Of a stretch of 64,000 nucleotides of DNA, positions 8,612-49,855 are shown one piece after another. Numbering within the stretch: position 1 is the first letter of the stretch; every line of letters starts with the position of its first letter. The translations under genes were made by a program, and so were the position numbers. Origin of the DNA: Nitrosopumilus sp. (lineage in GTDB: Archaea; Thermoproteota; Nitrososphaeria; Nitrososphaerales; Nitrosopumilaceae); the NCBI GenBank assembly GCA_965218785.1, contig OZ244650.1, positions 1,888,001-1,952,000 of the forward strand, written 5' to 3'. The notes under the pieces were generated by a model that did not search any database, was not told where the DNA came from, and was given only the letters and a program-made list of their open reading frames with translations.

Positions 8612-8716
8612 ATCAGAATTTCTGTACAAATCGAAAATCACAAAAACAACTCCAATGACGTAAACACGCATCTAAATCCACCAAGGTTTATAACCAAAAA
8701 TTGAGTAAATAACAAA

Positions 8717-9097
8717 ATGGGACTAGTCAAGGATGTAATCAAGGAGATTGGAAACAAATCAAGAGAGTTCTACGAGTTTGTCCTGCCGCCAATTGACATG
8801 TACCTAAATGACGATGAGCTCAGGGTCGTAATTGATATCCCCGGATTTATCAAAAAAGATATCGAGCTTGCCTTATGTGGAGACATCCTTTCAATCAAGG
8901 CCCAAAAAACAGTACCTGAAAAAGAATCAGAATCGTTAATTTCAAATCAGAGACCCAACGTAATTGATAAAAAAATCAGGCTTCCCATCGATGTAAAACA
9001 GGGGGAGGAGAAAATAAAATCTGCAAAGTATGAAGACGGTATTCTTACATTAATTATTCCTGTAACAAAAAAAGGAAAGAATATCGCAATAGAATGA
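8717..9097 (+). CDS. Small heat-shock protein (Hsp20/alpha-crystallin)
   Basis: PPIDMY, DIPG, AKYEDGILTLIIP; TTTATAA box upstream. Confidence 0.93.
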   Translation: MGLVKDVIKEIGNKSREFYEFVLPPIDMYLNDDELRVVIDIPGFIKKDIELALCGDILSIKAQKTVPEKESESLISNQRPNVIDKKIRLPIDVKQGEEKIKSAKYEDGILTLIIPVTKKGKNIAIE

Positions 9098-9098
9098 T

Positions 9099-30684: not shown

Positions 30685-31521
30685 CTAGGGCGTGGTTTGT
30701 TTTGTTTCAGGCTTTGATTCTGGTGTAGTTTGTTTTGTTTCAGACTTTGTTTCCGGTGTAGTTTGTTCTGATGTTGTTGTCGCTGTTGTTTCTGGTGTGG
30801 TTTGTTTTGTTTCAGACTTTGTTTCCGGGGTCTGTTTGTTTAGATATGTTTCAACAAAACTTAGCTTGTTTAATGTTGGAACAAATTTGAATACATCCTG
30901 TTGAATAAAGTACTTTGTTATTTGCAAACTCTCTGCACGGAAAAACTCTTCTGGAATTGCAATATCTACGTCATTGTCTTTCAGGTCAAATATGATTTTT
31001 GCATCCTCGACATCAAATCGGTTTTTAAGGATTCCATCAATTTTATCATGGGGAGAATCAAGTGATTTTATCACGTGTACATCAAAGAGGATCGTTTTGC
31101 CTGCATATCTGTGGTTGTAATCCATCTGTACCCTGCCAGAGCCAATAAAACGGATAATTCCCTTTTTGTTATCAACTTCGATTGTATCACCTACTGAAAC
31201 TTTTTCGGCATCCTCGCCTAGTTTTCTGATTGGAATCATTCTGACTTTTTTGGAGTCTCTTTGGCCAAATCCCTTATCGGGCGTGACTTCGACTGTAAGT
31301 TTGTCTCCGACAGATGTTTGTGCAAGCGCCTCGTCTAGTCCTTGTAGAACAGAAAAGGACACCTCGCCAATTGAGACCAGCTTTGGTCGATACGTGATGT
31401 GTGATTCATAAATGGAATGTTTTTTTGCTGTCTCTTCATTGGTGGTATCAAAGACCTCGTCATTATCTTTTATTTTTGCAGTATAATCCACCTGGATCAG
31501 CGAACCCTTATTGAAAGTCAA
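30685..31521 (-). CDS. slyD: FKBP-type peptidyl-prolyl isomerase (long archaeal type)
   Basis: VDYT...FDTT, GLDEAL, DYNHRYAGK. Confidence 0.92.
   Translation of the reverse strand: MTFNKGSLIQVDYTAKIKDNDEVFDTTNEETAKKHSIYESHITYRPKLVSIGEVSFSVLQGLDEALAQTSVGDKLTVEVTPDKGFGQRDSKKVRMIPIRKLGEDAEKVSVGDTIEVDNKKGIIRFIGSGRVQMDYNHRYAGKTILFDVHVIKSLDSPHDKIDGILKNRFDVEDAKIIFDLKDNDVDIAIPEEFFRAESLQITKYFIQQDVFKFVPTLNKLSFVETYLNKQTPETKSETKQTTPETTATTTSEQTTPETKSETKQTTPESKPETKQTTP
30690..30838 (-). repeat. Tandem repeats coding KQTTPE(T/S)K(S/P)ET in the FKBP tail
   Basis: Repeated GTTTGTTTTGTTTCAG(A/G)CTTTG units. Confidence 0.85.
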
Positions 31522-31783
31522 TGTGATCGGTCTTGAATTTCCTTATATTAAGTTAAACCTAGATGAGCTCTAATTTAGCACCGTAAATCAGAGATGAATG
31601 TTTTATCAAAATTTATCATGAGATTAGCCGTTTGGCTGGAAATAACGGGAAAACATTAAGATGAATCACAAGATATCAAATATTGTTAAAATTTCCAAGA
31701 AAGATCATTGAGAAAAAATATCCGTCAAAAAATATGTACATATCTTAGAAAATTATTTAAAGATAGAAATTCAAGTCATAAAA

Positions 31784-32701
31784 ATGACCATTTTTACTAT
31801 AGATTCAGAAAAACTATCTCCTGTGTCAGAAATTCTCTTTAAACTAGAAAAGGATTTGCAGAAACTTGTTGAAAGAAATCTCAAAGAGGTATTTGGATAC
31901 AATTTTGTAACAAGTGAATTTCAATTATCTGGGCTACGAATAGATACATTAGCTTTTGATAAAGAATCTAATTCTTTTGTAATCATAGAGTATAAACGTG
32001 AAAAAAGCTCATCTGTGATAGATCAAGGATATGCTTATCTTTCTTTATTATTAAATAATAAAGCAGAATTTATTCTCAATTACAATGAAACGCAATCTGT
32101 GCCACTAAAGAAAAAAGATGTAGATTGGACACAAACTAAGGTAATTTTTGTTGCACATTCTTTTACGCCACATCAACAACAGGCAATAAAATTTAAAGAT
32201 TTACCAATAGAATTATGGGAGGTAAAAAAATTTTCAAATAAAACAATTCTTTTCAATCAGATTAGATCATCAAAGAAAAATGAATCAATAAATAAATTAG
32301 ATTTAAAAAGTGATGTTGTTCGTTCAGTAAGTAGAGAAATAAAAACATATTCTGAAGAATATCATTTTGATAAAAACGGTAGTAAAAAAACTATTACACT
32401 TTATGAAATACTCAAAGAGAAAATTATGACATTAGGTGATGAAATAGAACCTGTTTTTAGAAAACATTACATTGCATTCAAATCAAAATCCAATTTTATA
32501 TATGTTAACATACAGAAAAATGTCTTACATGTGGATATATCATTGCAGCTAAATCAACTAATTGATCCTAAAAAAATTGTAAGAGATATGTCTAAAATTG
32601 GTCATTATGGTTCTGGAAATTCAAGAGTAACAGTAAAAGAGACTAAAGATATTCAATATCTTATATTTTTAATTGAACAAGCCTACTCAAAATTAAAATA
32701 A
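31784..32701 (+). CDS. PD-(D/E)XK endonuclease (NucS/DUF91-like) with DUF5655-like C-terminal domain
   Basis: EKDLQ, RIDTLA...IIEYK, VIDQGYAY; C-terminal KHYIAFK...RDMSKIGHYGSG. Confidence 0.8.
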   Translation: MTIFTIDSEKLSPVSEILFKLEKDLQKLVERNLKEVFGYNFVTSEFQLSGLRIDTLAFDKESNSFVIIEYKREKSSSVIDQGYAYLSLLLNNKAEFILNYNETQSVPLKKKDVDWTQTKVIFVAHSFTPHQQQAIKFKDLPIELWEVKKFSNKTILFNQIRSSKKNESINKLDLKSDVVRSVSREIKTYSEEYHFDKNGSKKTITLYEILKEKIMTLGDEIEPVFRKHYIAFKSKSNFIYVNIQKNVLHVDISLQLNQLIDPKKIVRDMSKIGHYGSGNSRVTVKETKDIQYLIFLIEQAYSKLK

Positions 32702-32849
32702 TTTTTTAATCAAGATATCACTGCTGTATAATCATAATTTTTTTCTTTTAGAAATCTATGAAATCATATTAAAGCATATTACAATCTCCAACATCATTTT
32801 GATAATAACAATCCAAATCACATTTATTTTTAGAACTGGTTCCCCAAAA

Positions 32850-33710
32850 TTAGATTATAGTTTCTTTTCTTCTTTTTTTGTTGACAATTTCATATCCCAG
32901 TCTTTTGATGATGGCATCCAGTAATTGGTACAAGTCGGTTTTAGTTGTGTATTTTCTTGAATAAGGTCCTACCGTGGTTCTTTTTCCCCGTGCAAGTTCG
33001 TATGCTTTATGAACAGACCCATCTCCAAAAATCCCTATGGCATTTCCATGATTTCCTTTAACTGCAGAAAAGCATGGAATATCAGTTGGTCCGTCACCCA
33101 GATAAATCATGTACTCAAACGGTATTCTTCTATTTTCAGGAGCGATTGAATCATTAACACTGTATGGATTTTTTCTCATCATTTCTACCGGGATTCCCTT
33201 GTTAATAGCATAAAGAAATTTTGTTTTTTCTGTAAATGTAACACTTGATTTTATTCCAGTGATTTTTTTTGTTTTTTGATCTTCTAGAAGCTTTGCAGCA
33301 TAGATATCATCAAAATGTTTGTTTAGTGGACTTCCTTTGATGATGTCTTCAATTCCTGAGGAGATGATATAAGATTCTAATTTTATTCCGGCATCAACAA
33401 AATCACTGTTTTTATTGACGGATTTTTTTAATTCTGAGATAAACTTGGTTACCCCCTTGTACGGTTTGACTTTTTTTCCAAAATCAAAAAGTTTCTGATT
33501 GGTATTTTGCTTGATTTCTCCGGAATTCATCATATCTACAATTGCAGTCATCCAGGCCAATGGTGGATCCCATCCCTGTTGGACCTGTTTTGCAATTTTC
33601 TTGTTCCAAAACGACTCTATGTCTATTCCGTTACTTTCTAAAAGTGCACTTGTAGTATCTGGCGCCAAGGTATCATCACAGTCACAGATTATTGCAATAA
33701 TATTTTGCAT
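32850..33710 (-). CDS. HAD-superfamily phosphatase
   Basis: DCDDTL (motif I), IISSG (II), K (III), YLGDGPTD (IV). Confidence 0.88.
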   Translation of the reverse strand: MQNIIAIICDCDDTLAPDTTSALLESNGIDIESFWNKKIAKQVQQGWDPPLAWMTAIVDMMNSGEIKQNTNQKLFDFGKKVKPYKGVTKFISELKKSVNKNSDFVDAGIKLESYIISSGIEDIIKGSPLNKHFDDIYAAKLLEDQKTKKITGIKSSVTFTEKTKFLYAINKGIPVEMMRKNPYSVNDSIAPENRRIPFEYMIYLGDGPTDIPCFSAVKGNHGNAIGIFGDGSVHKAYELARGKRTTVGPYSRKYTTKTDLYQLLDAIIKRLGYEIVNKKRRKETII

Positions 33711-34263
33711 ATTGACCTACTCTAAAGTTTGAATAAAAACAGTTTGCTTTTGATTTTACATCTCATTATGACATGCTAAAGGGGTGGGTATACAAATTGT
33801 CAGGTTATGTTACTTGGAGTAGTAACAGGAATAGAAATTCAACATCAGTTATGGAGATTGATTTTACAATGGAAATTCCAGCAGTAATAAAAGATGTTAA
33901 AATTAACACAAGGGATCGATACCCAATTGGTCTAGAGTATTACTAGCAGGTTTTCGGCGTGGTCCCATTAGCCTCAAGGGTACAAGTATCGATGTATGCT
34001 ATACTAAATCCTCCTATTTAGGAATTTCGTAGGACACCTGAATCTTGATATTTCCATCCATATCAAAAAGACGTTAAATGAGGGTTGTTCATGACATGAT
34101 TATCGTAATAATAGAACCATCATACGTGAATTATTATCAGACTCTAATAGAATATGTTGCTAATCGTTGTTGCAAAAGAGATCCAAAATGAGCTCAAAAA
34201 ACAACATTTTCCTCTCCTCCCCCTCAATCGGATATCAAAAGTGGAATATGTTTCCAATCTCAC

Positions 34264-35124
34264 TTAGCAAAAGTTCTGAGTGGAATAAACACCTTCACCA
34301 CCATTAATTATTACGCCGACTCCGATTCTATCATACTCTTCATCCAGAATATTTTCCCTATGTCCGGGACTGTCCATCCAGCCATCAACTAGTTCCTTTG
34401 CAAGTGTCTTCTCATCAGCTATCCAATTGTAAAATATTGCAATTCCAACAGTGGTATATGAATAATATGTATGACTTTGGTAAATGTTCTCGGCTAGTCC
34501 CTCCGTATAATATGAAAGGTATTCTTTCTTACATGAATATCCTGCCTTGTTTCCCCTGTCTGTTGAATCCTCTCCTTCAGGGGAATAATGTGAAAAATAA
34601 TCCCTGTCGGACATGTCCCAGCTGTGGTCTCTGGCAATAGAGTCGATTTCTGAAATTCTGGTTAATTTTTCAATTCCTCTCTGTTGTCGTTCATCATTTG
34701 TAAAATTGTAAATATGTTCTTCAATTAATGAAGGATTAAATTCGGACTTTAATCTTACTGGCAAAGTTGAAACATCCGGAATCTCAATCTGGGATATGGG
34801 GTATGTGGAATTATTAATTATATCATCAATAGAGTCTGGAAATTCGATTTTAGATATTGTGGTAATGGTACTGTCTGGAATATGGATGGTGACAAAATCA
34901 GTTATTTCCTGTATAATCTGTTCTAATTTTTCTTGATCTATTTTGATGATTTCATTGGAATAGCCAAAAACTATGATTATGGTACACATCACGATTGTAA
35001 TAGTTAATAATGCCGCAACCTTCTTTCCCGACTGCCTTCTCTGAGAGCGACGGTATGATTTTTTCCCACAGCTTGTACAAACAAAATATTCTGGAGTATA
35101 GACGTAACTATGATTACAGCCCAT
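34264..35124 (-). CDS. CAP/SCP-domain membrane-anchored protein with N-terminal Zn-ribbon
   Basis: N.ER...G, ARDHSWDM...YFSH, AENI, WMDSPGHRENIL, TQNFC; CNH...CTSC before a TM. Confidence 0.9.
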   Translation of the reverse strand: MGCNHSYVYTPEYFVCTSCGKKSYRRSQRRQSGKKVAALLTITIVMCTIIIVFGYSNEIIKIDQEKLEQIIQEITDFVTIHIPDSTITTISKIEFPDSIDDIINNSTYPISQIEIPDVSTLPVRLKSEFNPSLIEEHIYNFTNDERQQRGIEKLTRISEIDSIARDHSWDMSDRDYFSHYSPEGEDSTDRGNKAGYSCKKEYLSYYTEGLAENIYQSHTYYSYTTVGIAIFYNWIADEKTLAKELVDGWMDSPGHRENILDEEYDRIGVGVIINGGEGVYSTQNFC

Positions 35125-35413
35125 TGATTCTCTTTACAAATTATGAACTTAAACATATTGGATGTTGCACTGGTAAGTTAGTGGGTGTTTTGACTGCTAG
35201 TAAAGTTGGGACGTTTTGCAAAATTTTATCCCAAATAGCGATCTTCTTTGTATTGAAAAATTGAGGGCACGATATATCCTGATGATCAGTTCCATTTTAC
35301 ACCAGTCGGAATTGAGCTCACGCATGATCTGAAAAACTTGCCCGTGTGTTAGTTTCTTCGGAGATGGGTTAATTACACACAAATTCTATTAGATAGATGT
35401 GAGATTGCATAGA

Positions 35414-36205
35414 TTGAAAACCAGAATTAAAATCATAATTCCAATAATTATCGCAATTTCTATTTTAGCAGCTGTATTATTTGATACGGCATATTATACT
35501 GTACATAAAGACTGGGAGGGATTTATTCTGGATTATTTTTCTGATAACGAATTCCAAGAACTACTCAAGGGGGATTACGTGCAGGAAGCAGATATTGTAA
35601 CTATTACTGACAAAGATCTGGAGGAGGTTCCCAAATTAAAGGAGTTGATGGACATGGTAGTGATAAAGGAATTCCCATTTAATGAAATCGGTAGTGTCGC
35701 ATCTACGGTTGATACGATAAAAGAATATCACAGATACTATGCAATCATTTTAGCAGAAAAATATTCAAAAAATTCTGAGGACTTTTTTAGAACATCCACT
35801 GTGTCCGCCGATATATTGGAAAAATATCCTAATGCATATAGATATGAGTTTGATGGCGCACACTATGTATACAACGGAGTGCAGTATTCCTGGTTCAATG
35901 GATCTATGCTCATCCGTGAAGAGGGAGAATTGACAAATATTAGCACTGCAATAATGAATCATCCCCTAGATCCAAATCGCGACATATGGGCCACTATCAC
36001 CGATGAGGATTTGGAAAAAATGCCGCTGCTCAAAGAGGCAATTGGCAAAATTGGAACCATAGAGAAAAATATTCAGGTTCGCAGTGATAACATGTTACAT
36101 GCGGAATATCTCTCAACATATCAAAGATGGTTAGATGAAAAAACCTCCTCTTCCGTGTTTGAGTATGATGGGAAATATTTCCACGTGGGATGGTGGATGG
36201 AATAG
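35414..36205 (+). CDS. Membrane-anchored/secreted hypothetical protein with an internal repeat
   Basis: TTG start MKTRIKIIIPII; ITDKDLEEVPKLKE and ITDEDLEKMPLLKE repeat. Confidence 0.7.
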   Translation: MKTRIKIIIPIIIAISILAAVLFDTAYYTVHKDWEGFILDYFSDNEFQELLKGDYVQEADIVTITDKDLEEVPKLKELMDMVVIKEFPFNEIGSVASTVDTIKEYHRYYAIILAEKYSKNSEDFFRTSTVSADILEKYPNAYRYEFDGAHYVYNGVQYSWFNGSMLIREEGELTNISTAIMNHPLDPNRDIWATITDEDLEKMPLLKEAIGKIGTIEKNIQVRSDNMLHAEYLSTYQRWLDEKTSSSVFEYDGKYFHVGWWME

Positions 36206-36206
36206 A

Positions 36207-36500
36207 ATGAAAACTAGATTTTTGATAATTATCATCACGATTCAATCCCGGTGTCATTTTCCGGTGCTACACAATTCTTAGAGACATTTCATTTTCTCTC
36301 AATTCTGTAAACTGGGATGAACCCGAGATTATGAGTTTTGATAGATTAATCAGATATTCAACTGTTGAGAGGTTTCCTTTACAGACGTTAGTGTAACGCA
36401 TTAATACAGATTTGGCACAGAGTAAGTATGGAAAAATCTAAACTCAAAGATGAGGAACCGTGGGGGAAAAGAGATGATGAAGTATTTGAGAGATATGAAA
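36207..36500 (+). pseudogene. Degraded remnant of an MKTRFLII-type secreted protein gene
   Basis: ATGAAAACTAGATTTTTGATAATT directly after the previous stop, followed by early stops. Confidence 0.35.
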
Positions 36501-37110
36501 AAAGCCTGAAAAAATCAAAGTAATCTAATGACTCATGTTCTTCATGTACAATTTGACAAAGAATTCAACAAGTACTAAATACGCCTGATTCAAACTGCAA
36601 AATTGATACTGTAGCAGTTGTTCTGCCGATATAATTAGTTCAAAATTTGCCAATATCCGTTGTCCGGATTTAATTAATGATAAAATAAGAAGAAGAGAGC
36701 TACTGAGAATTTGTATGTTTATGCCATTCTCAAAAAATATAATTTGATTTTTGTAGGAGTCAGAAAAATCGGAAAGAAAGTACAACTGTATAACGATAAT
36801 TAAAAAGTTATAGCGGTCACAGAAATCATCGGTTTTACCATTATGATCAAAATAGATCATACTGATCAATGAATAATGGATATCCAAGGCATATCAACAA
36901 ACACTACGCATGATACGTATCATGCAATCATATCAGGAAAAACACTGTCTCTTTTTTGCATCCAAAATCAAAGCACACATTTTCCACATGTTAGCATGAA
37001 TAGCCATAATAAAATATGAATCATAATCAAATGAAAGATCCCGTCAAAATCAAGCAATTAAATGCAAGGATTTACCGATTAATACTGCTGATTCCAAATG
37101 GTAAAATACA

Positions 37111-40100
37111 ATGAAATTTGATGATGAAAAACTAGCGGCAATAGAGCATACCGGTTCTGCCCTACTAGTTACTGCAGGTCCCGGAAGCGGCAAGACCAGG
37201 GTAATTACAGAGCGAATAAAATTTTTGATAAAAACGGGATTAAGACCAACAGAGATTTTGTGTTTGACATTTTCAGAAAAGGCCGCACACGACCTCAAAG
37301 ACAGACTGGAAAACGATGATGAGATTAAGGAAAAAATCGACGTCTCTGAGATGCAGATTAGTACCTACCATTCGTTTTGCAGGGATTTACTAATAGATAA
37401 CACAACATCTACCGGACTGGGAATGAGGGGCGGGATACTAGACCGTCCGGTGTTTCTGGTGTGGGGCGTTCAAAACATCGACAAGTTTGGATTCGATGAT
37501 CACATAGAGATCGGAAACAATGCAGTTGATCTGATTGAAAAGATGGTTGACGGAATCAGTACGTTTACCAGTGAGTTGGTGACCCCCGACGAATTAGAGG
37601 AATACGTCAAAGCAAAATTCGACGGTTCTAAAAAGATAAAAGACGAGGAGGAAAGGGAGTATCTTCACATGCTGGAGAATCTCGTAAAGATGTACAGGGA
37701 GTACATCAGATTCAAAAAGGAAAACGACATTATGGACTTTGATGATCTCATAGTAGAGGCAAATAATCTGCTTGGCAACGAATCAAAACCCCACGCGTTA
37801 AACCAGGCCCAGAAAAGATACAGGCACATCCTAATTGACGAGTTTCAGGACAACAACTTTGCCCAGTTTTCAATTGTAAAAAAGCTGGCCAAAAACGGAA
37901 ACGTCACTGCAGTGGGAGATGCGGATCAGAACATCTACAGATTCCAGGGGGCATACACCCAGATCTTTGAGGATTTTGAAAAATCATTTCCGGATCACAC
38001 CAAGGTAGAACTGTTAAAAAACTGGAGAAATCCCAGACATGTAATTAGCTTCTCAAACCAGCTGTTAAGGCAAGACCGGCTTCGAGTACCAAAGGAAATC
38101 ACACCTACAAAAGACGACCCCCAGAAGGTGGGCGTAGTGGAATGCTCATCAGAGTATGCCCAGGCAGAATTTATCAGAAAAAAGATTCGTGAGTTGATGG
38201 ATGGTTCAGACTACAAATTCAGTGATTTTGCCATCCTATCTAGAAAACAAAAAGACGGGCTCAATGTCGCGCAGATTCTGGTATCAGATGGAATACCTGT
38301 AAAATACATTGGAAAATCAGAGATTCGAAACTCTGCCAAAGCAAGGATGCTGTTTGCATTTTTACGAATAATTGCAAACCCAATGAGATCCATGATCAGT
38401 ATCATCAGGATTTTACAAGAGTATGGAATATCAGAGCAGAACATCTCCAAGATAAATCACGAGGCCAAGATCAGGGCACAAGGCAGAACCGATGGAGATT
38501 ACGCCTATGACGTGCTCTCGGATTTGAAGATAGCGGATCTTACTCAGAAAAAAGAGCTGTCTGACATTTTTGCCATGATTCAGGATTTTATCAATCTTGC
38601 AAAAAACTCATCCCCGTCACAGACCATCTATCAGATAATTCGAAACAAGACAGATATTTACAAAAATATTGCAAATGACGACTCTATAACTAATTTCATA
38701 GAGCGCTCGATTCTAAATGACATTATAGAAAGTGTATATGATTTTGAAAAGATAAACACCCAGGCGGGAATCAAGGAATTCCTGGAATTTGCAGATGAAT
38801 TAGATAAATTCGACATTGAGATAAAACATGATACAGTTGATTCTGATGCGGTGCAAATATCCACAATTCACAAGAGCAAGGGGCTGGAATTTAGAACCGT
38901 CTTTATCATCGATGTTGCAACATACAAGATCCCGCTAAAGTATACTGAAAAACCGTTTTTTGTGCCAGAAGAACTCTCAAAAGGCGTAAAACCCGCATCT
39001 GATGCAAAGGAGGAATTTCTGCGAGAGGAAAGAAGGATATTCTATGTGGGCATGACTAGAACCATTGATAATCTGTTTTTGATGTATCCCACACAGTATG
39101 AGAGCAGAAGCAAGGCAAACAAGGCATCAAAGTTTCTTGTAGCGTTAAAACCCGAAGAAAATGACGATGTTGATTTTAAAAGACATGATTCTATTGCAAA
39201 TCCAGAGGTTTCAACCACGTTTGATGCAATAGAGATTCTCAAAAACGAAAAGCTCGAGCAAACAATCAAGAACCTTCACAGTGAACAGTATGAAAGTGCG
39301 GTTCAGAGAATCCAAGATTTGGCAAGGATTAGCTACTTTCAAAAAAACCAAGAGTCAGATGGATTCTCTTTTGGTGGATTGCTAGAGCAGTCACAGGGCA
39401 AGGAACTTGAGGCACAGTTACTTGGAACACAGCCAGAGAAATTGGGGTTTTCAAAAAAGAATCTCTCCTTTTCCAAATTTGATACGTACGAGAGATGTCC
39501 AAAACAGTTTTGGTATCAACACGTACTCAATGCACTGCCTGAAAACCAGGAGATGCCCGCACTATACAAAGGAAGTACGTTTCATGAGATCGTAGAGAAC
39601 TCGGCTAAAAGACAGAAGGAGGGCAAGATGGATGATGCAGAAGCGCTGCTAGGCGAACTAGAATCAATATGGGATCCAAAAAAATACCTTACAAGCTCGG
39701 TTCAAAAGCAACAGCAGGATAAGAAATCCCTTGCACCGGCACTACAAACATACCAAAGGTGGTCCAGATCAAATCCCAATGAGATCGTTGCGTTGGAGCT
39801 GCCATTCTCAATTCACATCGGAGGATTCCCCGTAAATGGCGTGATAGACAGAGTAGAAAAGACCCCCGAGGGCGAGTATGTGGTAATAGATTACAAGACA
39901 GGCGGGAAAAATAAGAAAGTTGATGCTGCAAACAGTGTGCAGTTGAACCTGTATAGCATGGCACTAAAGGAAAATCCGGATTTTGGTAGATACCCCATCA
40001 AGGCCATGTTTTTCTATGTGGAAAAGCCAGAAGGCGGGCAATTCTTTGAGTACAAGGTGGATCCTGCCAAAGTTGACGAGATAAAAAGCAAGTTGGAAGG

Positions 40101-40203
40101 GTATGTCAGCGCAATTCAAAACAAAGATTTTGATGCAAAGCCCGGATTGTTTACTTGCAAATGGTGTGATTACTCGGATATTTGCGATGAGGCTGAAAAA
40201 TAG
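37111..40203 (+). CDS. UvrD/REP SF1 helicase fused to a C-terminal PD-(D/E)XK nuclease (AdnB/AddA-like)
   Basis: AGPGSGKT, LTFSEKAA, IDEFQD, VGDADQNIYRFQGA, TIHKSKGLEF, EERRIFYVGMTR; then CPKQ, GVIDRVE, IDYKTG, QLNLY, CKWCDYSDIC. Confidence 0.93.
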   Translation: MKFDDEKLAAIEHTGSALLVTAGPGSGKTRVITERIKFLIKTGLRPTEILCLTFSEKAAHDLKDRLENDDEIKEKIDVSEMQISTYHSFCRDLLIDNTTSTGLGMRGGILDRPVFLVWGVQNIDKFGFDDHIEIGNNAVDLIEKMVDGISTFTSELVTPDELEEYVKAKFDGSKKIKDEEEREYLHMLENLVKMYREYIRFKKENDIMDFDDLIVEANNLLGNESKPHALNQAQKRYRHILIDEFQDNNFAQFSIVKKLAKNGNVTAVGDADQNIYRFQGAYTQIFEDFEKSFPDHTKVELLKNWRNPRHVISFSNQLLRQDRLRVPKEITPTKDDPQKVGVVECSSEYAQAEFIRKKIRELMDGSDYKFSDFAILSRKQKDGLNVAQILVSDGIPVKYIGKSEIRNSAKARMLFAFLRIIANPMRSMISIIRILQEYGISEQNISKINHEAKIRAQGRTDGDYAYDVLSDLKIADLTQKKELSDIFAMIQDFINLAKNSSPSQTIYQIIRNKTDIYKNIANDDSITNFIERSILNDIIESVYDFEKINTQAGIKEFLEFADELDKFDIEIKHDTVDSDAVQISTIHKSKGLEFRTVFIIDVATYKIPLKYTEKPFFVPEELSKGVKPASDAKEEFLREERRIFYVGMTRTIDNLFLMYPTQYESRSKANKASKFLVALKPEENDDVDFKRHDSIANPEVSTTFDAIEILKNEKLEQTIKNLHSEQYESAVQRIQDLARISYFQKNQESDGFSFGGLLEQSQGKELEAQLLGTQPEKLGFSKKNLSFSKFDTYERCPKQFWYQHVLNALPENQEMPALYKGSTFHEIVENSAKRQKEGKMDDAEALLGELESIWDPKKYLTSSVQKQQQDKKSLAPALQTYQRWSRSNPNEIVALELPFSIHIGGFPVNGVIDRVEKTPEGEYVVIDYKTGGKNKKVDAANSVQLNLYSMALKENPDFGRYPIKAMFFYVEKPEGGQFFEYKVDPAKVDEIKSKLEGYVSAIQNKDFDAKPGLFTCKWCDYSDICDEAEK

Positions 40204-40357
40204 AGTTGGCTGGAAACTAGTTAATTTCTCTTCAATAATGTATTTGTCGATTTACAAGTGTAAAAATCTAGAATTAGTAGTAAACTTAGTCTTTGCCCAC
40301 TTGCTACAGATTTTTGGAGAAATTCTATTTCATTTCTATATTCTCTCATAACCCAAC

Positions 40358-41579
40358 GGCGTTGTCCATAAATTCATAAAAATCACCAATTACGAGGCAT
40401 CATAACCTACCCATATCCTTGGATTTCATGCCGATTCATCATATTCCAAATGACAATGCAGTATTTACAGATATAATTCATGCTTTGATAATGCCACAGG
40501 CTAGCGATGTAAATGCATTTTCACATTTATAAAATCACACGATCAGATTATAGCTGATACATCGCAGACCAAGTTCTACAGTTATGCCCTTATTTGATAT
40601 TGTCTTTACCGCGCTGCCGAGTCTCTTCTTCATTGATGAGAATGCCATCTCCACAAGACTGCATTTGGGATATACCTTGTCAAATGATTCCCTGTCTTTT
40701 TCATACCAATCCAGCATGTTTATCCGTGCACTATATCCTTTTTTGACGTATCCTTGTTTGGGATATATCACAGGCATTCTTCCGGAACCTACAATCTTTG
40801 TACAGTTGTCATTGCAAGTATGCCGCATCAAGTAAAACGTAACCATCCCCATCGAGTATGTCTAACAACATCTTTCGAAATACCGGAGAGTCGTGTGCGA
40901 TTCTCTCTGTCACATAAAACGCAGAGATCATTCCCTTTGGTTTGCAGAGTATGTGCAGTTTTACAAATTCGTGCCTAGATATGAGGCCTTTTTTTGCATC
41001 TTCCCATTCCTGATATCTGTTCTTTGAGAGTCCACTTGAATCCTCGCAGTGTTCCTACCACATGTCTTATGGCATGTATGCCCGCATTTTCCGTATGATG
41101 ATACGATCCAGACGATGTCGAATCGTTTAGGGTGGATTTTGAAGGTATCTTTTTTAACTTGAAGAGTAGTATCTGTGTGGAGTTCAAGAATGATACAGTA
41201 TCACGATAAGATAAATTGTATCTTTCTCGAAGTATAAGACACATTACCATGGATGCCGGATCAAGATCTTGACGTCCACGGTTCTTTGCCTTGAAAAAGG
41301 GCTGGAGTATGTAAAATAGTTTTCGCATTCGTCGGAGCATCTTCTTGCTCTCCTGTTTGTGCTTTATTTCATAGGATTTGCCATATCCTGGTTTTCATGT
41401 CCATTTTTTCTGACTGGTAGTGATTCCTGTATGATCTGTTTTTGTATCGTTTGTTTCTGCATTGAACTTTTACTTGTCATTATATTGGGTAGAACATACT
41501 GATTTTTAGCTTTTCGGTCGGATGTTCTTTTGATCTTTAAGCTTTTCGGCATATTTTGATTGAATTTGCGGACAACGCC
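40358..41579 (-). mobile_element. IS5-family (IS903-like) insertion sequence, 1222 bp, transposase decayed
   Basis: TIRs GGCGTTGTCCATAAATTCA (40358-40376) and reverse-complement GGCGTTGTCCGCAAATTCA (41561-41579); 9-bp TSD TAACCCAAC at 40349-40357 and 41580-41588. Confidence 0.9.
40535..41462 (-). pseudogene. Frameshifted DDE transposase
   Basis: Fragments RGR....SMVMCLILRERYNLSYRD...KKIPSKSTL and YPKCSLVEMAFSSMKKRLG...ELGLRCISYNL in different frames. Confidence 0.82.
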
Positions 41580-41595
41580 TAACCCAACAAAACCC

Positions 41596-41601
41596 TTTAT
41601 A
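41596..41601 (+). promoter_or_regulatory. Candidate TATA box for the three-gene operon
   Basis: TTTATA between the IS right end and the TTG at 41647. Confidence 0.35.
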
Positions 41602-41646
41602 GAAAAGTATATCACTTTGACTTCTCGTAATAAATTAAGATACAAA

Positions 41647-43014
41647 TTGACGGATAAGATTTCTTGGACCAATCCTTCTGTAAAACTATTAGCTAAAGAT
41701 CAAGATCCTGTAGATGTTGTTGTAGGTAAAACTAGAGAACTTATCTTTGATGCCATAGATGGAGGATGGAAAGGTCCGCCATACGATCCAGTGAGTCTTG
41801 CAAAAAATTTAGGTTTTGATGTAATTCCTAATGAAGACGTGTTGGATGCACGGGTAATTTCAAAAGGAACCAATGTACAAATCGAGTATAATCCTAATAA
41901 ATCTAAAACAAGAATTAGATTTTCTCTTGCACATGAGATAGCTCATACTCTATTTCCAGATTATAAAGAATCTATTAGAAACAGATCAAAACAACACAGT
42001 AGACCTGATGGCTGGCAATTAGAATTATTATGTAATATTGCTGCCTCTGAAATACTAATTCCTGTTGTACCTCCATCTAATTTAGGTCATTTAGTAATCA
42101 CTATGAATAATTTGATTGAGATAAAAAAAAGATATGATGTTTCAATGGAATCAGTACTTTTACGAATGATCAAATTAACAACACAGCCTATTACATTTTT
42201 CTCAGCTGCAAGAAAAATAGATGATAAAAATTCATCTTTCCGTATTGACTATGTAATTAATTCCAAAACTTCCTTGTTGAATATTAAATCTGGAATGGAA
42301 ATTCCATCAGATAGTGTTCTATCTGAATGTTCTGCTATTGGTTTTACTGCCCAACGGAAAGAAAAATGGTTTAAAGAATTGCCTTCCTTAGATATTGAAT
42401 GTGTAGGTGTTTCACCATATCCAACTAATGTTTGTCCCCGTGTTATTGGAATTATTAAAACAAAATCAAAAAAAAATACTGAACCATTACGTATTCAATA
42501 TCTTGTAGGTGATGCAACAGAACCACATGGAAATGGGGGGAAAATGATTGTACATATTGTAAATGATCAAAGCAAAAGATGGGGGAGAGGTTTTGGATTA
42601 AACATTTCTAAAAAATGGCCCAAACTTGGAACCAATTTTGTTAAATGGGCTAATCTGGATTCATTGACTCTTGGAACATGTCATATTTTTAATGCTTCTA
42701 ATAATTTAGTAATAATTAGTATGATCACTCAACATGGTTATGGGAAATCTAAAAAACCTAGAATTCGTTATAGTTCTCTTGCAACTTGTTTGGAAATTGT
42801 TGCTATTGAAGCTAAGAAAGAATCAGCTAACGTTCACATGCCTAGAATTGGTACAGGATATGCAGGCGGTGATTGGAAAATTATTAGTGAAATGGTTGAT
42901 GATTTATTAATTAAACGAGGTATTGAGGTTACAGTATATGATCTGCCTGAAACACAACGACCCAGAGAAAATTATAACTTGTTAGATTTTTCATCTCCCG
43001 AATTACTTTGTTGA
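41647..43014 (+). CDS. ImmA/IrrE-family Zn metallopeptidase fused to a C-terminal macrodomain (DarG-like)
   Basis: RFSLAHEIAH (HExxH), ELLCNIAASEILIP; C-terminal YLVGDAT, IVHIVND...WGRGF, HMPRIGTGYAGGDW..I. Confidence 0.88.
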   Translation: MTDKISWTNPSVKLLAKDQDPVDVVVGKTRELIFDAIDGGWKGPPYDPVSLAKNLGFDVIPNEDVLDARVISKGTNVQIEYNPNKSKTRIRFSLAHEIAHTLFPDYKESIRNRSKQHSRPDGWQLELLCNIAASEILIPVVPPSNLGHLVITMNNLIEIKKRYDVSMESVLLRMIKLTTQPITFFSAARKIDDKNSSFRIDYVINSKTSLLNIKSGMEIPSDSVLSECSAIGFTAQRKEKWFKELPSLDIECVGVSPYPTNVCPRVIGIIKTKSKKNTEPLRIQYLVGDATEPHGNGGKMIVHIVNDQSKRWGRGFGLNISKKWPKLGTNFVKWANLDSLTLGTCHIFNASNNLVIISMITQHGYGKSKKPRIRYSSLATCLEIVAIEAKKESANVHMPRIGTGYAGGDWKIISEMVDDLLIKRGIEVTVYDLPETQRPRENYNLLDFSSPELLC

Positions 43015-43018
43015 GGTG
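43012..43018 (+). promoter_or_regulatory. Shine-Dalgarno-like TGAGGTG before the kinase-synthetase gene
   Basis: Overlaps the previous stop codon, 8 nt upstream of TTG 43027. Confidence 0.55.
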
Positions 43019-43026
43019 GTTCTTAA

Positions 43027-44625
43027 TTGCCCGATAAATTCATACTAATATCAGGACCAATATCTTCTGGAAAATCTAAACTCTCCAATCAACTTTCAGA
43101 TAAATTAGATGCTCGTTTGATAAAAACACGAGATATTTTGATACGTACAAAAAAAATCAACTCAAATGATCGAATATCTTTGCAAAAAGAAGGAGATAAA
43201 CTAGATAAAAAAACTGATGGAAAATGGGTTTTAGAAGATTTAGATTGTGTAGTTAGAAACAATACTAAAGAAAATACTATTTTTGTTGTTGATTCTGTAC
43301 GTATTTCTCAACAAATTGAAAGAATTAGAGATGCATTTAAACCCGTCATTCATTTACATCTCACAGCTCCAAATGATGTATTAAAAAAAAGATATCAGCA
43401 ACGTTACAAAAAACAAGAAAATGTTCCATCATATAAACAAGTCAAATGTAACAAAACTGAAAAAAATATTGAAACTTTAGCACCTATAGCTGATGTCGTT
43501 ATTGATACCAATCGTTGCAATGAAAATGATGTTTTTGTACGTGCTGCAAGTAGGATGTCCTTATTTGGTGAAAATGGAAATGGAATAGTTGATGTTGTAG
43601 TTGGAGGAGAATATGGAAGTGAAGGCAAAGGTCAGATTGTAGCCTATTTGTCTAAAGAATATGATCTTCTAGTTAGAGTTGGAGGTCCAAATGCAGGACA
43701 TAGGGTTTTTGCAAAACCTGAATCTTACACACATCATCATCTTCCATCAGGTACAAAAAAAAGTACTGCTAAACTTTTGTTAGGACCCGGTATGGTTATC
43801 AATCCTAAAAATTTACTTACTGAAATTATGGAATGTGATGTAGAATCTGACAGATTAAGTATTGATCCCCAAGCTATGATTATTGATGAAGAGGATATTA
43901 AATCTGAAATTGAATTGGTAAAAACTATAGGTTCTACGGGTCAAGGTGTAGGCGCTGCAACTGCTAGAAAAATTCTCAAACGAAATAAAAATACACTTCT
44001 CGCTAAAGATGTTCGTGACTTAAAACAATACATTAAACCTGCCATTAAAGTACTTGAAAAAACATTTGCAAATAATGGACGAGTTTTATTAGAAGGGACT
44101 CAGGGAACGGGTCTAAGTATTCATCATGGTTCATACCCATATGTAACATCTAGGGAAACTACTGTTTCAGGATGTTTGGCAGATGCTGGAATTCCACCAT
44201 CTCGTGTAAGAAAAGTGATAATGGTATGTAGGACATATCCCATACGAGTTAAAAACCCAGAAGGTAAATCGTCGGGACCTATGAGTCAGGAAATCAGCTT
44301 AAACGAAATAAGTAAACGTTCTAAAATTCCATTAACTGAACTAAAAAAAACAGAAAGAACTTCTACTACTAACAAAAAACGAAGGATTGGTGAATTTGAT
44401 TGGGATCTGATAAAAACAGCTACATTCTTGAACAGTCCTACGGATATTGCATTAACCTTTGCTGATTACTTGTCAATTAAAAATCGAAGTGCAAAAAGAT
44501 TTGAACAATTAACAACAGATACAATAAATTTAATTGAGGAAATAGAACGTGTTACAAAGGCCAAAATATCTTTAATTGGCACTGGTTTTAATTCTAGAAG
44601 TATTATTGATAGACGGGATTGGTGA
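43027..44625 (+). CDS. P-loop nucleotide kinase fused to an adenylosuccinate synthetase homologue of PurZ/PurZ0 type
   Basis: N-terminal ISGPISSGKS, VVDSVR; C-terminal GGEYGSEGKG, GPNAGH, HLPSG, IGSTGQGVG, EGTQG, YPYVTSR, RTYPIRV, TSTTNKKRR, LTFADY. Confidence 0.85.
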   Translation: MPDKFILISGPISSGKSKLSNQLSDKLDARLIKTRDILIRTKKINSNDRISLQKEGDKLDKKTDGKWVLEDLDCVVRNNTKENTIFVVDSVRISQQIERIRDAFKPVIHLHLTAPNDVLKKRYQQRYKKQENVPSYKQVKCNKTEKNIETLAPIADVVIDTNRCNENDVFVRAASRMSLFGENGNGIVDVVVGGEYGSEGKGQIVAYLSKEYDLLVRVGGPNAGHRVFAKPESYTHHHLPSGTKKSTAKLLLGPGMVINPKNLLTEIMECDVESDRLSIDPQAMIIDEEDIKSEIELVKTIGSTGQGVGAATARKILKRNKNTLLAKDVRDLKQYIKPAIKVLEKTFANNGRVLLEGTQGTGLSIHHGSYPYVTSRETTVSGCLADAGIPPSRVRKVIMVCRTYPIRVKNPEGKSSGPMSQEISLNEISKRSKIPLTELKKTERTSTTNKKRRIGEFDWDLIKTATFLNSPTDIALTFADYLSIKNRSAKRFEQLTTDTINLIEEIERVTKAKISLIGTGFNSRSIIDRRDW

Positions 44626-45287
44626 TTGAATTAGATTTAATCGCACTAGTAACACAATATCCTTTCTTATATCATATGGCTGAATCTGGTAGTTGGTCAA
44701 ACATAAAAAAAAATGGACTTTTGAGTACATCTGCTCTTTTGGATTTATTTGAGATTAAAGGAGAAGAAAGAAAAATAATAGAATCCAATTGGAGACCCAA
44801 AAATGTGACTATTAACCATAAAAAATATGGTAAAGCTGTTATTAGAGATCAAAAACCATTACCTGAAAATAAACTTGAACCACTTTTAGACAATATATCT
44901 ACAAAATCATTTTATAAATTATTGAATGGAAAAACATTTTTTTGGTTAAGCAAAGAGAGATTACAACGATTGCTAAATGCAAGAGCATATAGAGAAAGTT
45001 CTCATGATGTATTGACAATAGATGCAAAAAAACTAATCGATAAATACGAAGATCAGATTGCTCTTTCTCGGATTAATTCTGGTGCAGCTATTTTTGGCGT
45101 GGGTCGTCGCGGTCGATATACATTTCAAAAAATTAAGGATTATTCCTATGACGATATTAAGAAAAAACAAAAAGAAGCAATTGCTGAATTGGCGGTTGAT
45201 TATGCAGTGCCAGATATTGTTAATCATACACTTCGTGTAGAAACATGGAAAGGTAGTTTTCCTACGAGAGTCATATGGAAAAAATAG
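44622..45287 (+). CDS. DarT-like ADP-ribosyltransferase-fold protein (DUF7002-like)
   Basis: LYHMA....W.NIKKNGLLS, TFFW, LSRINSG, IAELAV...VPDI parallel the DarT motifs YH.T...NL.SI...GLLS, PFYF, N, AE.LV...VP; GTGA overlap with the upstream stop. Confidence 0.7.
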   Translation: MIELDLIALVTQYPFLYHMAESGSWSNIKKNGLLSTSALLDLFEIKGEERKIIESNWRPKNVTINHKKYGKAVIRDQKPLPENKLEPLLDNISTKSFYKLLNGKTFFWLSKERLQRLLNARAYRESSHDVLTIDAKKLIDKYEDQIALSRINSGAAIFGVGRRGRYTFQKIKDYSYDDIKKKQKEAIAELAVDYAVPDIVNHTLRVETWKGSFPTRVIWKK

Positions 45288-45683
45288 TATTTGATATTTG
45301 ATTGTGTATAATTTCTACGTTTCTTCTAAATACAATAAGCTATAATCTACACATAAAAAAGCCCAAAAAAATCAATATTCAGAGTCAACTCCAACAAATT
45401 CTTTCTTTTTTCTTGTAATTACTTGACATCTCTTATGATACATATCTAATTGAGACGGGCATAATAATTTACAAAAATAACTTTCAGTTATTCTCTAGTA
45501 ATAAAGCATTCTCTTTATAATCCTCGAATTCTCCAATTACCAAATTATAATAAACTATACTGGTAAGAATTTTTATTTAACAGAATTTCAGAGCAAGCAG
45601 TCATAAATTAAGAGTTGATTCTTTAGACATGTTATAATTCAAGAATATAAGCACAAAAGAATCACGATGTCAAGCTAGCAGAG

Positions 45684-46829
45684 TTACAACGCTTTTAGTT
45701 TTTCTTCGGCCGTCTTGAGGCCTGCCTGTGTATCTATCTTATATCCCATCATTGCCAGCGTAGACGAGATTGCAGAGATGGTCCTCATTACGTGGTACGG
45801 ACTGACCTCACCCATGCATCCAACCCGAAACACCTTGCCTTTCAGATCACCGAATCCGCCTGCAACTAGAACCTTGAATTTATCAGCCAGCGTGCTTCTA
45901 AAGATTTTATCCTCTAGTCCGTCCAGATAGTTCAGTGCAACAATTGAGATGGAACGATCTTCTGGTTTTGCAAACGGAGTAAGACCAATCGCACTCAATC
46001 CCGCGTATAACGCATCAGAGCAGACCTTGTGGCGGTTAAAGACATTTTGCAGTCCCTCTTCGAGCATAATTGAGAGTGCCTCCCTGTATGCATACAGCAA
46101 GGGCAAAGCGGGTGTAAACGGAGTGTGTTTTTCCTCGTCATAATACTTGAAGTATCTTGCCAGATTGAAATACATGGTGGGTGGTGGATTTTCAATCATG
46201 TATTTTTTAGCTTTGGCACTGACAGATATCGGTGAGATGCCAGGAGGGGCAGCAATTGCCTTTTGTGCGCCGGTCATACATACATCTACATTCCATTTAT
46301 CCACCGGGAGATGGGCACCGCCCAGCAGTGATACGGAATCTACAACATAGAATGCATCGTTTCTTGATGTCAGATCAGATATCCTGTCAAGATAGTTCAC
46401 CATTGTTCCAGTCGAGGTTTCATTGTGAACGACATAAAATGCCTTGACATCCTTGTTATTATCAAAGGCCTCTTTTACCTGATCAAATGTCGCATTCTCC
46501 CCTGGTGGGGTCTCCAGCCGGATGATGTTGGCGCCCTGACCCTCAATAAGTTGTGATAACCTGTTACTAAATTCCCCATTTACGGGAATGATAATTTTAT
46601 CGCCTTTTTTAACCAGATTAATAACGCCTGCTTCGACTGCACCTGTTCCTGATGCGGATAATGCCACAATGTCATTCTGTGTTTCAAACACCTGCTGGGT
46701 TTTTGCAACCACATCAGTATACAATTCTACAAAATCATCGCTTCTATGATTGATAATGGGTGCAAGCATTGCCCTCATAACTCTGTTAGGTACATTTGTC
46801 GGACCGGGAAGCATTGAAAGATATTCCAT
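45684..46829 (-). CDS. Class V aminotransferase (alanine-glyoxylate/serine-pyruvate family)
   Basis: MLPGPT, HNETSTG, VDSVS, TGAQKA, FRVGCMG. Confidence 0.93.
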   Translation of the reverse strand: MEYLSMLPGPTNVPNRVMRAMLAPIINHRSDDFVELYTDVVAKTQQVFETQNDIVALSASGTGAVEAGVINLVKKGDKIIIPVNGEFSNRLSQLIEGQGANIIRLETPPGENATFDQVKEAFDNNKDVKAFYVVHNETSTGTMVNYLDRISDLTSRNDAFYVVDSVSLLGGAHLPVDKWNVDVCMTGAQKAIAAPPGISPISVSAKAKKYMIENPPPTMYFNLARYFKYYDEEKHTPFTPALPLLYAYREALSIMLEEGLQNVFNRHKVCSDALYAGLSAIGLTPFAKPEDRSISIVALNYLDGLEDKIFRSTLADKFKVLVAGGFGDLKGKVFRVGCMGEVSPYHVMRTISAISSTLAMMGYKIDTQAGLKTAEEKLKAL

Positions 46830-49529: not shown

Positions 49530-49781
49530 GTTCTTCAGACCTCTTGGAGTACGTTGATGGGAAATTCAAAACGAGATACTGGTTTGTACCAAACACCGGA
49601 CGGGATTTGCTGGCTTTGGTCCTTGGCCACATCTGATGAATTGGCAAAGGCAATGGTCTCACATTTGAGCTTTGATTAAATGATTTGACTGATAATCACG
49701 TAACGTATAATGGCACATCAATTCCTTGGGTTTTATGAAACTAGTGGCAGGCAGCAGATGATTCGGCCTGAATTGATGGAG

Positions 49782-49855
49782 TGGGCCGAGAGAGATTCGA
49801 ACTCACGATCACCGCCGTGTCGAGGCGGTATCCTAACCAGCTAGACTACCGGCCC
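49782..49855 (-). tRNA. tRNA-Val(GAC)
   Basis: GGGCCGGTAGTCTAGCTGGTTAGGATACCGCCTC-GAC-ACGGCGG...GTTCGAATC...GGCCCA cloverleaf. Confidence 0.96.

Follow-up and report, generated by a model that had tools for sequence, protein, structure and literature searches.

A kinase-fused ligase of the PurZ/PurZ0 lineage in a mobile three-gene cassette of archaea and bacteria

A stretch of 64,000 nucleotides from Nitrosopumilus sp. (GenBank assembly GCA_965218785.1, contig OZ244650.1, positions 1,888,001 to 1,952,000; hereafter the window) contains a cassette of three tightly packed genes on the plus strand, which encode, in this order, an ImmA-type peptidase fused to a Macro domain (ImmA-Macro), a kinase-ligase fusion and a DUF7002 protein (Table 1). 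The middle gene is the subject of this work. Its product is a two-domain enzyme composed of a P-loop kinase of the (deoxy)nucleoside monophosphate type and a short ligase of the PurZ/PurZ0 lineage, with conserved active-site residues, and it is not the housekeeping adenylosuccinate synthetase, PurA. In phages, the PurZ lineage makes N6-succino-2-amino-dAMP from dGMP and aspartate, a precursor of 2-aminoadenine (Z), and PurZ-type chemistry has so far been viewed as a phage invention to escape host nucleases.

Table 1. Features of the window, with positions counted from its first nucleotide (aa, amino acid residues)
Feature	Position	Strand	Basis and remarks
Kinase-PurZ-like fusion gene	43027..44625	+	TTG start, 532 aa
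P-loop nucleotide-kinase domain, aa 4-170	43036..43536	+	AAA_18, AAA_33
Short adenylosuccinate-synthetase-fold domain, PurZ/PurZ0 (Ser/Ile) clade, aa 188-532	43588..44625	+	PDB, PHROG, trees
P-loop GSEGKG (Asp to Ser), aa 197-202	43615..43632	+	Alignment
RTYPIRV strand (Thr to Ile), aa 402-408, with an insertion after it that canonical PurA lacks	44230..44250	+	Alignment
Aspartate loop TSTTNKKRR, aa 445-453	44359..44385	+	Alignment
TFAD, purine-specificity motif of the phosphate donor (Asp kept), aa 477-480	44455..44466	+	Alignment
ImmA/IrrE (M78) metallopeptidase fused to a DarG-like Macro domain	41560..43014	+	Pfam, PADLOC, NCBIfam
DUF7002 protein, 222 aa, probable DarT-like ADP-ribosyltransferase	44619..45287	+	PF22531, E 8.3e-62; 7-nt overlap with the fusion
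Low-GC island, 14.2 kb, cassette at its right end	31522..45683	.	GC and flank comparison
Transposase (DUF772) fragment, just upstream of the cassette	40975..41340	-	PF05598, E 7e-4, 20 bits, below the cut-off of 23.1; weak match
NucS_C/DUF5655 protein, island cargo	31784-32701	+	Pfam
UvrD helicase fused to a PD-(D/E)XK/Cas4-like nuclease, 1030 aa, island cargo	37111-40203	+	Pfam
FKBP gene, left flank of the island	30685-31521		
Class-V aminotransferase gene, right flank of the island	45684-46829		

The ligase domain of the fusion matched the Pfam family Adenylsucc_synt (PF00709, E 5.3e-59). The kinase domain matched AAA_18 over residues 6-131 (E 6.9e-10, 39.9 bits, above the cut-off of 29.4) and AAA_33 (27.1 bits, cut-off 27), and it carries the Walker A motif GPISSGKS at residues 10-17 and DSVR at residues 89-92. 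Its best match in the PDB was the AdkA-like SSO1041 (3lw7/3h0k, E 0.007), and it also matched a PHROG thymidylate kinase family (E 7e-6) and the N-terminal part of the PADLOC dCTPase model (E 9.8e-7). A first-pass annotation of this DNA, made from its letters, had quoted these two kinase motifs together with GSEGKG, RTYPIRV, TSTTNKKRR and TFAD, and all six lie where it had put them. A chance open reading frame (ORF) was ruled out by the Pfam matches and the large family of homologues, and a pseudogene by the intact, conserved frame. A word-indexed search returned homologues of the fusion in more than 120 clusters, of about 530 aa and with 56-68% identity. When the C-terminal domain was searched exhaustively, 9377 representatives reached E <= 1e-3 and 642 reached E <= 1e-30, the latter count including solo PurZ-like proteins and PurA proteins. 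Across 42 aligned fusions, S198, P405, I406, R407, R452, R453, F478, D480 and the kinase residue D89 were invariant, and the kinase residues G10, G15, K16, R92 and R122 were at least 90% conserved. The motifs of the fusion are features of its family and no product of chance. Other architectures built on the Ser-type domain were seen in P0252 (746 aa), P0303 (629 aa) and P0346 (644 aa), which have extra N- or C-terminal regions.

To place the ligase domain, we compared it with models of PurA and PurZ. The fusion has Ser in place of the catalytic Asp13 of PurA and stayed below the PurA equivalog cut-offs, with about 294-296 bits on the NCBIfam archaeal PurA model PRK04293 (cut-off 368), on which the PurA of the host itself reached 524 bits, and 214 bits on the PurA model TIGR00184 (cut-off 395). 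The score on PHROG_1211, a PurZ family named '2-aminooxy adenylosuccinate synthetase', was 251 bits. Upon searching the PDB with the ligase domain using phmmer, we obtained 186 bits for the PurA of P. horikoshii and 137 bits for the PurZ of phage phiVC8. The curated models thereby leave the choice between PurA and PurZ unsettled.

The individual residues were more telling. The Ser of the P-loop, the Ile in P-I-R-V, IGSTGQG, TSR and an insertion after the RV strand are common to the fusion and to phage PurZ and PurZ0, and in the alignment the residues around the base and this insertion resemble PurZ. Among the 135 nearest relatives (169 sequences minus 34 with partial coverage), 124 have the P-loop Ser, 125 have P-I-R and 127 have Asp at the position of TKLD, while the PurA of the host genome and 17 other archaeal PurAs read GDEGKG, (T/S)RVG and TKLD. 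According to the portions of the published work available to us, the Ser of PurZ sits beside the 2-amino group of dGMP (PMC8342488), the PurZ insertion after the conserved Val pushes this Val against the 2'-position (PMC8342488), and Ser occupies the P-loop position in 100% of 147 phage sequences (PMC12884076).

At the position that faces the base of the phosphate donor, the fusion has Asp (LTFADY), like PurA and PurZ0, and PurZ has Asn (LNFxNY). The corresponding residues Q308 of S-2L and N297 of phiVC8 are given as the adenine-specific donor contact of PurZ in the accessible text of PMC8342488. Since this Asp is kept as in PurA and PurZ0, it can fairly be inferred that the fusion would use GTP, as the first-pass annotation had thought probable. 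Section 24 of PMC12884076, in the form available, gives the preferences of PurZ0 and PurZ as 'ATP and GTP, respectively', which is the reverse of bioRxiv 10.1101/2025.10.22.683976 (likewise available in part) and of the Asp/Asn motif pattern, and is possibly a slip; the donor assignment used here follows the latter two and not that section. A solo Ser-type PurZ-like gene of 349 aa (GSEGKG, PIRS) was also seen on a bacterial chromosome (L012:4305-9585, Paenibacillus sp. contig NZ_QZCF01000002.1). Its neighbours are a NUDIX gene, a gene for an AdoHcy-hydrolase-like NAD-binding protein and a DegT-type aminotransferase gene, and the locus looks like a nucleoside natural-product or modification cluster and not like a phage.

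Phylogenetic trees of the ligase domain were built with PurZ from VP5, JeffCo and Ochrobactrum phage OH, PurZ0 from Archimedes (PDB 7VF6, as given in the part of PMC12884076 available), Wayne and TurboVicky, the sequence of Bacillus phage BpsS-140, and PurAs from bacteria and from archaea of the window's phylum. Before the trees, P0270 and P0370 were dropped, as were 6 of 23 archaeal loci that held no PurA under the ORF filter (17 were kept); L142 was also dropped. In the FastTree tree of 150 taxa, a Ser/Ile clade of 128 tips was sister to archaeal PurA with a Shimodaira-Hasegawa-like support of 0.90, and inside it 45 fusions and 8 solo forms came together with a support of 0.94. In the IQ-TREE tree (LG+G4, 72 taxa, 335 columns), the Ser/Ile clade had 92% ultrafast bootstrap support, all 22 fusions grouped with 5-8 solo forms at 91-100%, and PurZ and PurZ0 each formed a group at 100%. 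In a careful tree of 41 taxa, the support was 100/100 for the Ser/Ile clade and 100/99 for the fusions. Clustering with canonical PurA had been named beforehand, in the first-pass annotation, as the result that would overturn a PurZ/PurZ0-like identity. When the fusions were forced together with the canonical PurAs, this placement was rejected by the approximately unbiased (AU) test (log-likelihood difference 51.8, p-AU 0.0047), for a tested group whose rows were set after the first trees had been seen. The PurZ/PurZ0-like identity was borne out in this way, and the ligase domain very probably belongs to the PurZ/PurZ0 clade and not to canonical PurA.

The host genome also has the separate canonical purA that the first-pass annotation had proposed looking for (333 aa, G000 C1:~1656900-1657870), as well as a purB (432 bits). 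Upon screening 60 relatives, 36 of the genus and 24 of the order, we found the fusion in none of them and a PurA of about 337 aa in all 60.

The three-gene order is not peculiar to the window. It is identical in a Cenarchaeum metagenome-assembled genome and in genomes of Acidobacteriota, Gemmatimonadales and Binatia, and in four distant genomes the cassette has no phage genes around it. A metagenome scan gave 598 matched stretches, 577 of which encode relatives, and gene order was counted in the best 80 of these 577. Of the 66 loci with enough room (at least 1500 bp), 64 have ImmA-Macro directly upstream of the fusion. On the other side, DUF7002 directly follows the fusion in 58 of the 74 loci with room according to tblastn, in 66 according to the hidden Markov model (HMM) of the family and in 71 according to either, so that L096, L123 and L124 are the only loci where both methods miss it; six tblastn misses were tested with Pfam, and all six were divergent DUF7002 proteins (92-104 bits). 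The complete order was present in 55 of the 62 loci with room on both sides. In Rhizobium and Neorhizobium, a divergently transcribed HD protein replaces ImmA-Macro; it matches the phage dNMP phosphatases of PHROG_318 with 215 bits and, weakly, DatZ-type dATPases. Each of five cassette genomes has one DUF7002 gene, which stands beside the fusion. Among 401 Acidobacteriota genomes, five have DUF7002, three times beside the fusion, once solo and once as a remnant. The three-gene cassette is horizontally mobile and patchily distributed across archaea and bacteria. At other loci, its neighbours include an MmeI-type restriction-modification enzyme, AAA ATPases and a Schlafen/AlbA_2 protein. In one metagenome contig (L049), ImmA, Macro and kinase genes at 8443-10348 on the minus strand and PurZ-like and DUF7002 genes at 5562-7245 on the plus strand are seemingly parts of two opposed cassettes.

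The first gene of the cassette encodes a Peptidase_M78 domain (E 1e-11, 45.2 bits, cut-off 22), which also matches the PADLOC capP model (E 1.4e-17), and the gene product scores 82 bits on PHROG_335. Among 71 sequences, the HExxH motif has invariant H125 and H129, and E126 is at least 90% conserved. The models nearest to the Macro domain are those of DarG (PADLOC, E 2.3e-7; NCBIfam, E 5.9e-5), and the Pfam Macro model gave E 0.0038, below its cut-off. Because the homologue at L006 aligns from residue 30, the true start of ImmA-Macro may lie about 30 codons downstream.

The third gene overlaps the fusion, and its product is a probable DarT-like ADP-ribosyltransferase (ART). Upon comparing a profile of 61 DUF7002 sequences with DarT by hhalign, we obtained a local probability of 84% (P 7.2e-6, 29 N-terminal columns) and a global one of 50%; an earlier comparison with 50 sequences had given 42%. 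In the extended alignment, which is colinear, FFW falls on YF, NSG on NAG and the invariant Glu of vELaV on that of AEFLV. The conserved residues of DUF7002 are H19, F107-F108-W109 and E190. Among the relatives of DUF7002, the best score on the Pfam DarT family (PF14487) was E 0.011, with 15.9 bits against a cut-off of 22.5, and for a DUF7002 homologue in the Atlas the DarT lead was below threshold (rank 12, score 0.81). The accessible text of PMC12522546 describes Lmac_3114 as an ART-like family and a distant homologue of DarT, with the motifs Hxx, FFW and xxE and DNA as predicted target; an adenylosuccinate-synthetase domain lies near 60% of the genes of this family, rhizobial operons are among its occurrences, and the P. 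aeruginosa version carries AAA and NUDIX domains. A bona fide DarT homologue (PF14487, 109.6 bits) was also seen elsewhere in the Nitrosopumilus genome, at G000 C1:1962838-1963392, about 10.8 kb past the right end of the window.

The cassette sits at the right end of an inserted island. The GC content is 0.31-0.38 over about 32-46 kb of the window and 0.40-0.47 in the flanks. In 19 of 23 sampled congeners holding both flanking genes, FKBP and the aminotransferase are 45-258 bp apart, and the 14.2-kb stretch that separates them here is therefore an insertion. Two of the remaining congeners (G009 and G014) have other insertions at this junction, of about 5 and about 2.8 kb, and two have the genes on different contigs; the junction is an insertion hotspot. 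Besides the cargo listed in Table 1, the island encodes a CAP-domain protein and four ORFs without a Pfam match. The sole tRNA gene in the window, tRNA-Val (GAC) at 49781-49855 on the minus strand, lies apart from the island.

The fusion gene is thus accessory, located on an inserted island and tied to ImmA-Macro and DUF7002, which together are the signature of a mobile conflict cassette. A role in conflict, be it defence or an abortive-infection or toxin-antitoxin-like function, is reasonably probable, and a guanine nucleotide is a rather probable substrate. For the combined statement, that the fusion converts guanine nucleotides in the service of a mobile module of conflict or defence, we see the balance tipped slightly in favour. 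In such a module, the cassette would be switched on by, for example, a phage infection sensed via the ImmA-type peptidase. The ligase would then condense a guanine mononucleotide (dGMP being likelier than GMP) with aspartate at the expense of GTP, and the fused kinase would phosphorylate a nucleotide of this path. As a result, dG nucleotides might be drained, or succino- or 2-aminoadenine nucleotides might poison replication, or both. DUF7002 and the Macro domain would be a writer and eraser pair for ADP-ribose, acting on DNA or on the pathway.

Several observations weigh against this picture or limit it. For the ligase, the archaeal PurA model is the top single model and archaeal PurA the top PDB match, and the score on the NCBIfam PurZ model NF038379 is 211.7 bits, below the cut-off of 300. 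The aspartate loop keeps Arg/Lys where Arg303 of PurA contacts the ribose 2'-OH (PMC8342488, in the available part), so that the substrate may also be a ribonucleotide. The branching order of the fusion clade, PurZ and PurZ0 had 43-49% support in IQ-TREE and differed in FastTree, and most of the tree sequences were the nearest matches to the query, with archaeal PurAs from a single phylum. For the partners, the ART assignment of DUF7002 rests on the 29-column local profile match and the colinear motifs; the protein from the window gave no Pfam DarT match even at E 10, no PDB match in a profile search and no PHROG, NCBIfam or PADLOC match. The Macro domain scores 22.5 bits on the NCBIfam DarG model, below its cut-off of 250, and it has Gln (13 of 13 sequences shown; Q391, invariant in 71) where DarG has the Lys of FPTK, position 80 in the DarG compared, which we take to be the catalytic residue. 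For the cassette, DUF7002 also occurs without the fusion (L225, L227), and the defence-type neighbours are a few examples without a baseline. No system model in PADLOC-DB v2.0.0 covers the cassette; partial matches were to the dCTPase N-terminal part, capP, DarG and RmrA.

A bolder version of the proposal, which we consider a speculative long shot, is that cells took over the Z-pathway enzyme of phages and turned it into a weapon of immunity, in a defence of archaea and bacteria that marks by synthesis and then modifies. Upon infection, the fusion would flood the cell with deoxynucleotides of 2-aminoadenine or N6-succino-2-aminoadenine, which would enter replicating (phage) DNA. DUF7002 would ADP-ribosylate such DNA, perhaps at the 2-amino group common to Z and G. 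Protection or resetting of the host would fall to the Macro domain, and triggering to the ImmA peptidase.

In another reading, the kinase-ligase, with or without the ART, might make a small nucleotide signal that the Macro domain senses, with the ImmA peptidase as effector or derepressor. Macro domains serve as readers as well as erasers (PMC12522546, in the part available), the ImmA part resembles CapP of CBASS (cyclic-oligonucleotide-based antiphage signalling systems), and Gln at the position of the DarG catalytic Lys fits binding better than DarG-type hydrolysis. HD in rhizobia and NUDIX in P. aeruginosa (the latter from the accessible text of PMC12522546) take the place of the accessory gene, and both are nucleotide-cleaving enzymes. 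However, the cassette encodes no helix-turn-helix repressor or other obvious peptidase target, and PurA-fold enzymes are not known as signal synthases. A signalling system is in our view unlikely.

We further considered that the cassette might be a piece of an integrated or degraded virus with a Z genome and have no cellular function, and searched virus contigs for the fusion. A scan with the single protein as query gave no match on viral contigs; with an alignment as query, 529 of 536 matched IMG/VR stretches encode relatives. The best 80 of these 529 are mostly solo PurZ-like genes, and about ten have the full kinase fusion. Here the fusion follows directly after a family-A polymerase with exonuclease (PolA) in L132, lies between a DnaB-like helicase and a primase in L128, is near an AAA_28 kinase-like gene and an NT5C deoxynucleotidase gene in L131, and stands beside NDT-superfamily genes in L127 and L136. 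L129 and L134 hold the entire cassette, and in L130 an extra stand-alone P-loop kinase gene of 185 aa (5989-6546) lies directly upstream of the fusion and DUF7002. These PolA, DnaB/primase and NDT-like contexts lend indirect support to a kinase that would serve the ligase pathway. The two phage-context fusions L132 and L136 branch at the base, and all other fusions form a clade with 99% support that leaves them out. This fits a fusion that arose in phages and was later captured into the cassette, a direction that hangs on the root within the clade. A transposase fragment also adjoins the cassette in the window. In contrast to what a viral leftover would suggest, none of the three genes is disrupted and their frames overlap or lie close together, the active-site residues are invariant across 42-71 homologues, and the order persists in the metagenome loci and distant genomes described above, the latter without phage genes nearby. 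Moreover, the 10 island ORFs scanned, four of which have no Pfam match at all, gave no capsid, terminase or integrase match. We regard a functionless viral remnant as improbable.

An equally improbable explanation is a regulatory switch, in which DUF7002 and Macro would reversibly ADP-ribosylate the kinase-ligase, in the manner of DraT/DraG, and the nucleotide enzyme would be the only effector. Here the flanking of the enzyme gene by an ART-like writer and a Macro eraser, the 7-nt overlap of the fusion and DUF7002 frames and the constancy of this pair, next to which the third gene varies, would find their place; but the nearest ART relatives, DarT, act on DNA (PMC12522546, in the available part), and DUF7002 is found alone too.

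Ordinary purine metabolism is highly unlikely. A paralogous adenylosuccinate synthetase would then tune the AMP or NAD supply for the neighbouring ART, along the lines of a suggestion in the accessible portion of PMC12522546, where the adenylosuccinate-synthetase domains near the Lmac_3114-family genes led to a proposed regulation through purine synthesis; the databases, too, name the family 'adenylosuccinate synthase'. However, the catalytic Asp is Ser in 42 of 42 aligned fusions, the scores stay below every PurA equivalog cut-off, the domain belongs to the PurZ-type clade with its canonical placement rejected by the AU test, and a canonical purA is present.

The remaining explanation was that of the first-pass annotation, in which the host makes Z nucleotides, for its own DNA and hence a Z-containing cellular genome, and we consider it extremely unlikely: a PurZ-clade enzyme does lie in a cellular chromosome, purB is there to finish dZMP synthesis and most polymerases fail to tell Z apart from A (PMC8342488, in the part available), but the gene is absent from all 60 relatives, sits on the 14.2-kb island, is tied to ImmA-Macro and the DarT-like gene and has no DatZ, MazZ or DpoZ-type partner in the cassette, and expression of the Z cluster is reported to be toxic in E. 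coli (same source). Overall, the enzyme-level part of that annotation (PurZ/PurZ0 clade, Ser/Ile motifs, separate purA) largely stands, and its host Z synthesis gives way to an accessory gene with conflict-type partners.

Parts of this picture are in print. Four Ser-type archaeal sequences basal to PurZ/PurZ0 appear in section 24 of PMC12884076, and an operon of an ART and an adenylosuccinate synthetase in PMC12522546, as far as the available text of both goes. In the literature searched, the supplements of which may hold more, we found no description of the kinase-PurZ fusion, of a PurZ-clade identity within the ART operons, of the ImmA-Macro partner, of an archaeal occurrence of the cassette or of phage-borne kinase-PurZ genes, and nothing under the name DUF7002. 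The PurZ enzyme lineage, in kinase-fused form, is common in cellular genomes and metagenomes, and a mobile cassette locks it to genes of the ADP-ribosylation type. Should this cassette serve defence or abortive infection, immunity would gain a new mechanism based on nucleotide conversion, and the fields of Z-DNA and of DNA ADP-ribosylation of the DarT type would be joined. The fusions borne by phages point to a so far unrecognised form of the Z pathway with a kinase of its own. The cassette also offers a concrete hypothesis for the operons of ART and adenylosuccinate synthetase left unexplained in the accessible text of PMC12522546, and it may account for the small number of Ser-type sequences from archaea that lie close to the base of PurZ/PurZ0 (PMC12884076, in the part available).

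Among known enzymes, phage PurZ (phiVC8, VP5, S-2L and Acinetobacter phages), an ATP/dATP-dependent dGMP-aspartate ligase, shares the short PurA fold of the fusion and lies with it in the Ser/Ile clade; it differs in GSTGKG and the donor Asn, as against GSEGKG and Asp in the fusion, at an identity of ~30-33%. Unlike the fusion, phage PurZ has no fused kinase and stands in a phage cluster with datZ, mazZ/dutZ and a Z-polymerase, in place of which ImmA-Macro and DUF7002 flank the fusion. PurZ0 (Gordonia phage Archimedes, PDB 7VF6; Arthrobacter and Microbacterium phages) shares the P-loop Ser, PIRV and the donor Asp with the fusion, but has GSEAKG, TSS and xMxDQ, forms its own 100%-supported clade and has no kinase fusion. 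In the available portions of the sources, PurZ0 occurs in phages with dutZ/dmtZ (PMC12884076) and is a GTP-type intermediate between archaeal PurA and PurZ (bioRxiv 10.1101/2025.10.22.683976). The short archaeal PurA (P. horikoshii 2D7U/5K7X; PRK04293) is of the same length class and has the same C-terminal end as the fusion, but differs in GDEGKG, (T/S)RVG and TKLD and forms a separate clade.

Compared with known defence systems, AvcD-type anti-phage dCTP deaminases likewise join a P-loop kinase-like domain to a nucleotide-pool enzyme, and the N-terminal kinase domain of the fusion matches the kinase-like part of the PADLOC dCTPase model; their catalytic partner is a deaminase, in contrast to the PurA fold here. 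DarTG, a DNA ADP-ribosyltransferase with a macrodomain eraser, is similar in that a DarT-like protein and a DarG-like Macro domain share an operon. However, DUF7002 is only distantly DarT-like, with FFW for the Tyr motif. Lys-80 of DarG is replaced by Gln in the Macro domain, which is joined to an ImmA peptidase where DarG has its C-terminal domain, and a nucleotide enzyme lies between both genes. The Lmac_3114 family matches DUF7002, by description, in its motif triad, its adenylosuccinate-synthetase partner and its rhizobial occurrence (L009 and L011 here). The available text of PMC12522546 treats the partner as ordinary purine synthesis, reports the family from bacteria only and does not mention PurZ-type residues, ImmA-Macro or phage copies. 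Judging by the described motifs and the partner gene, we infer that DUF7002 and Lmac_3114 are one family.

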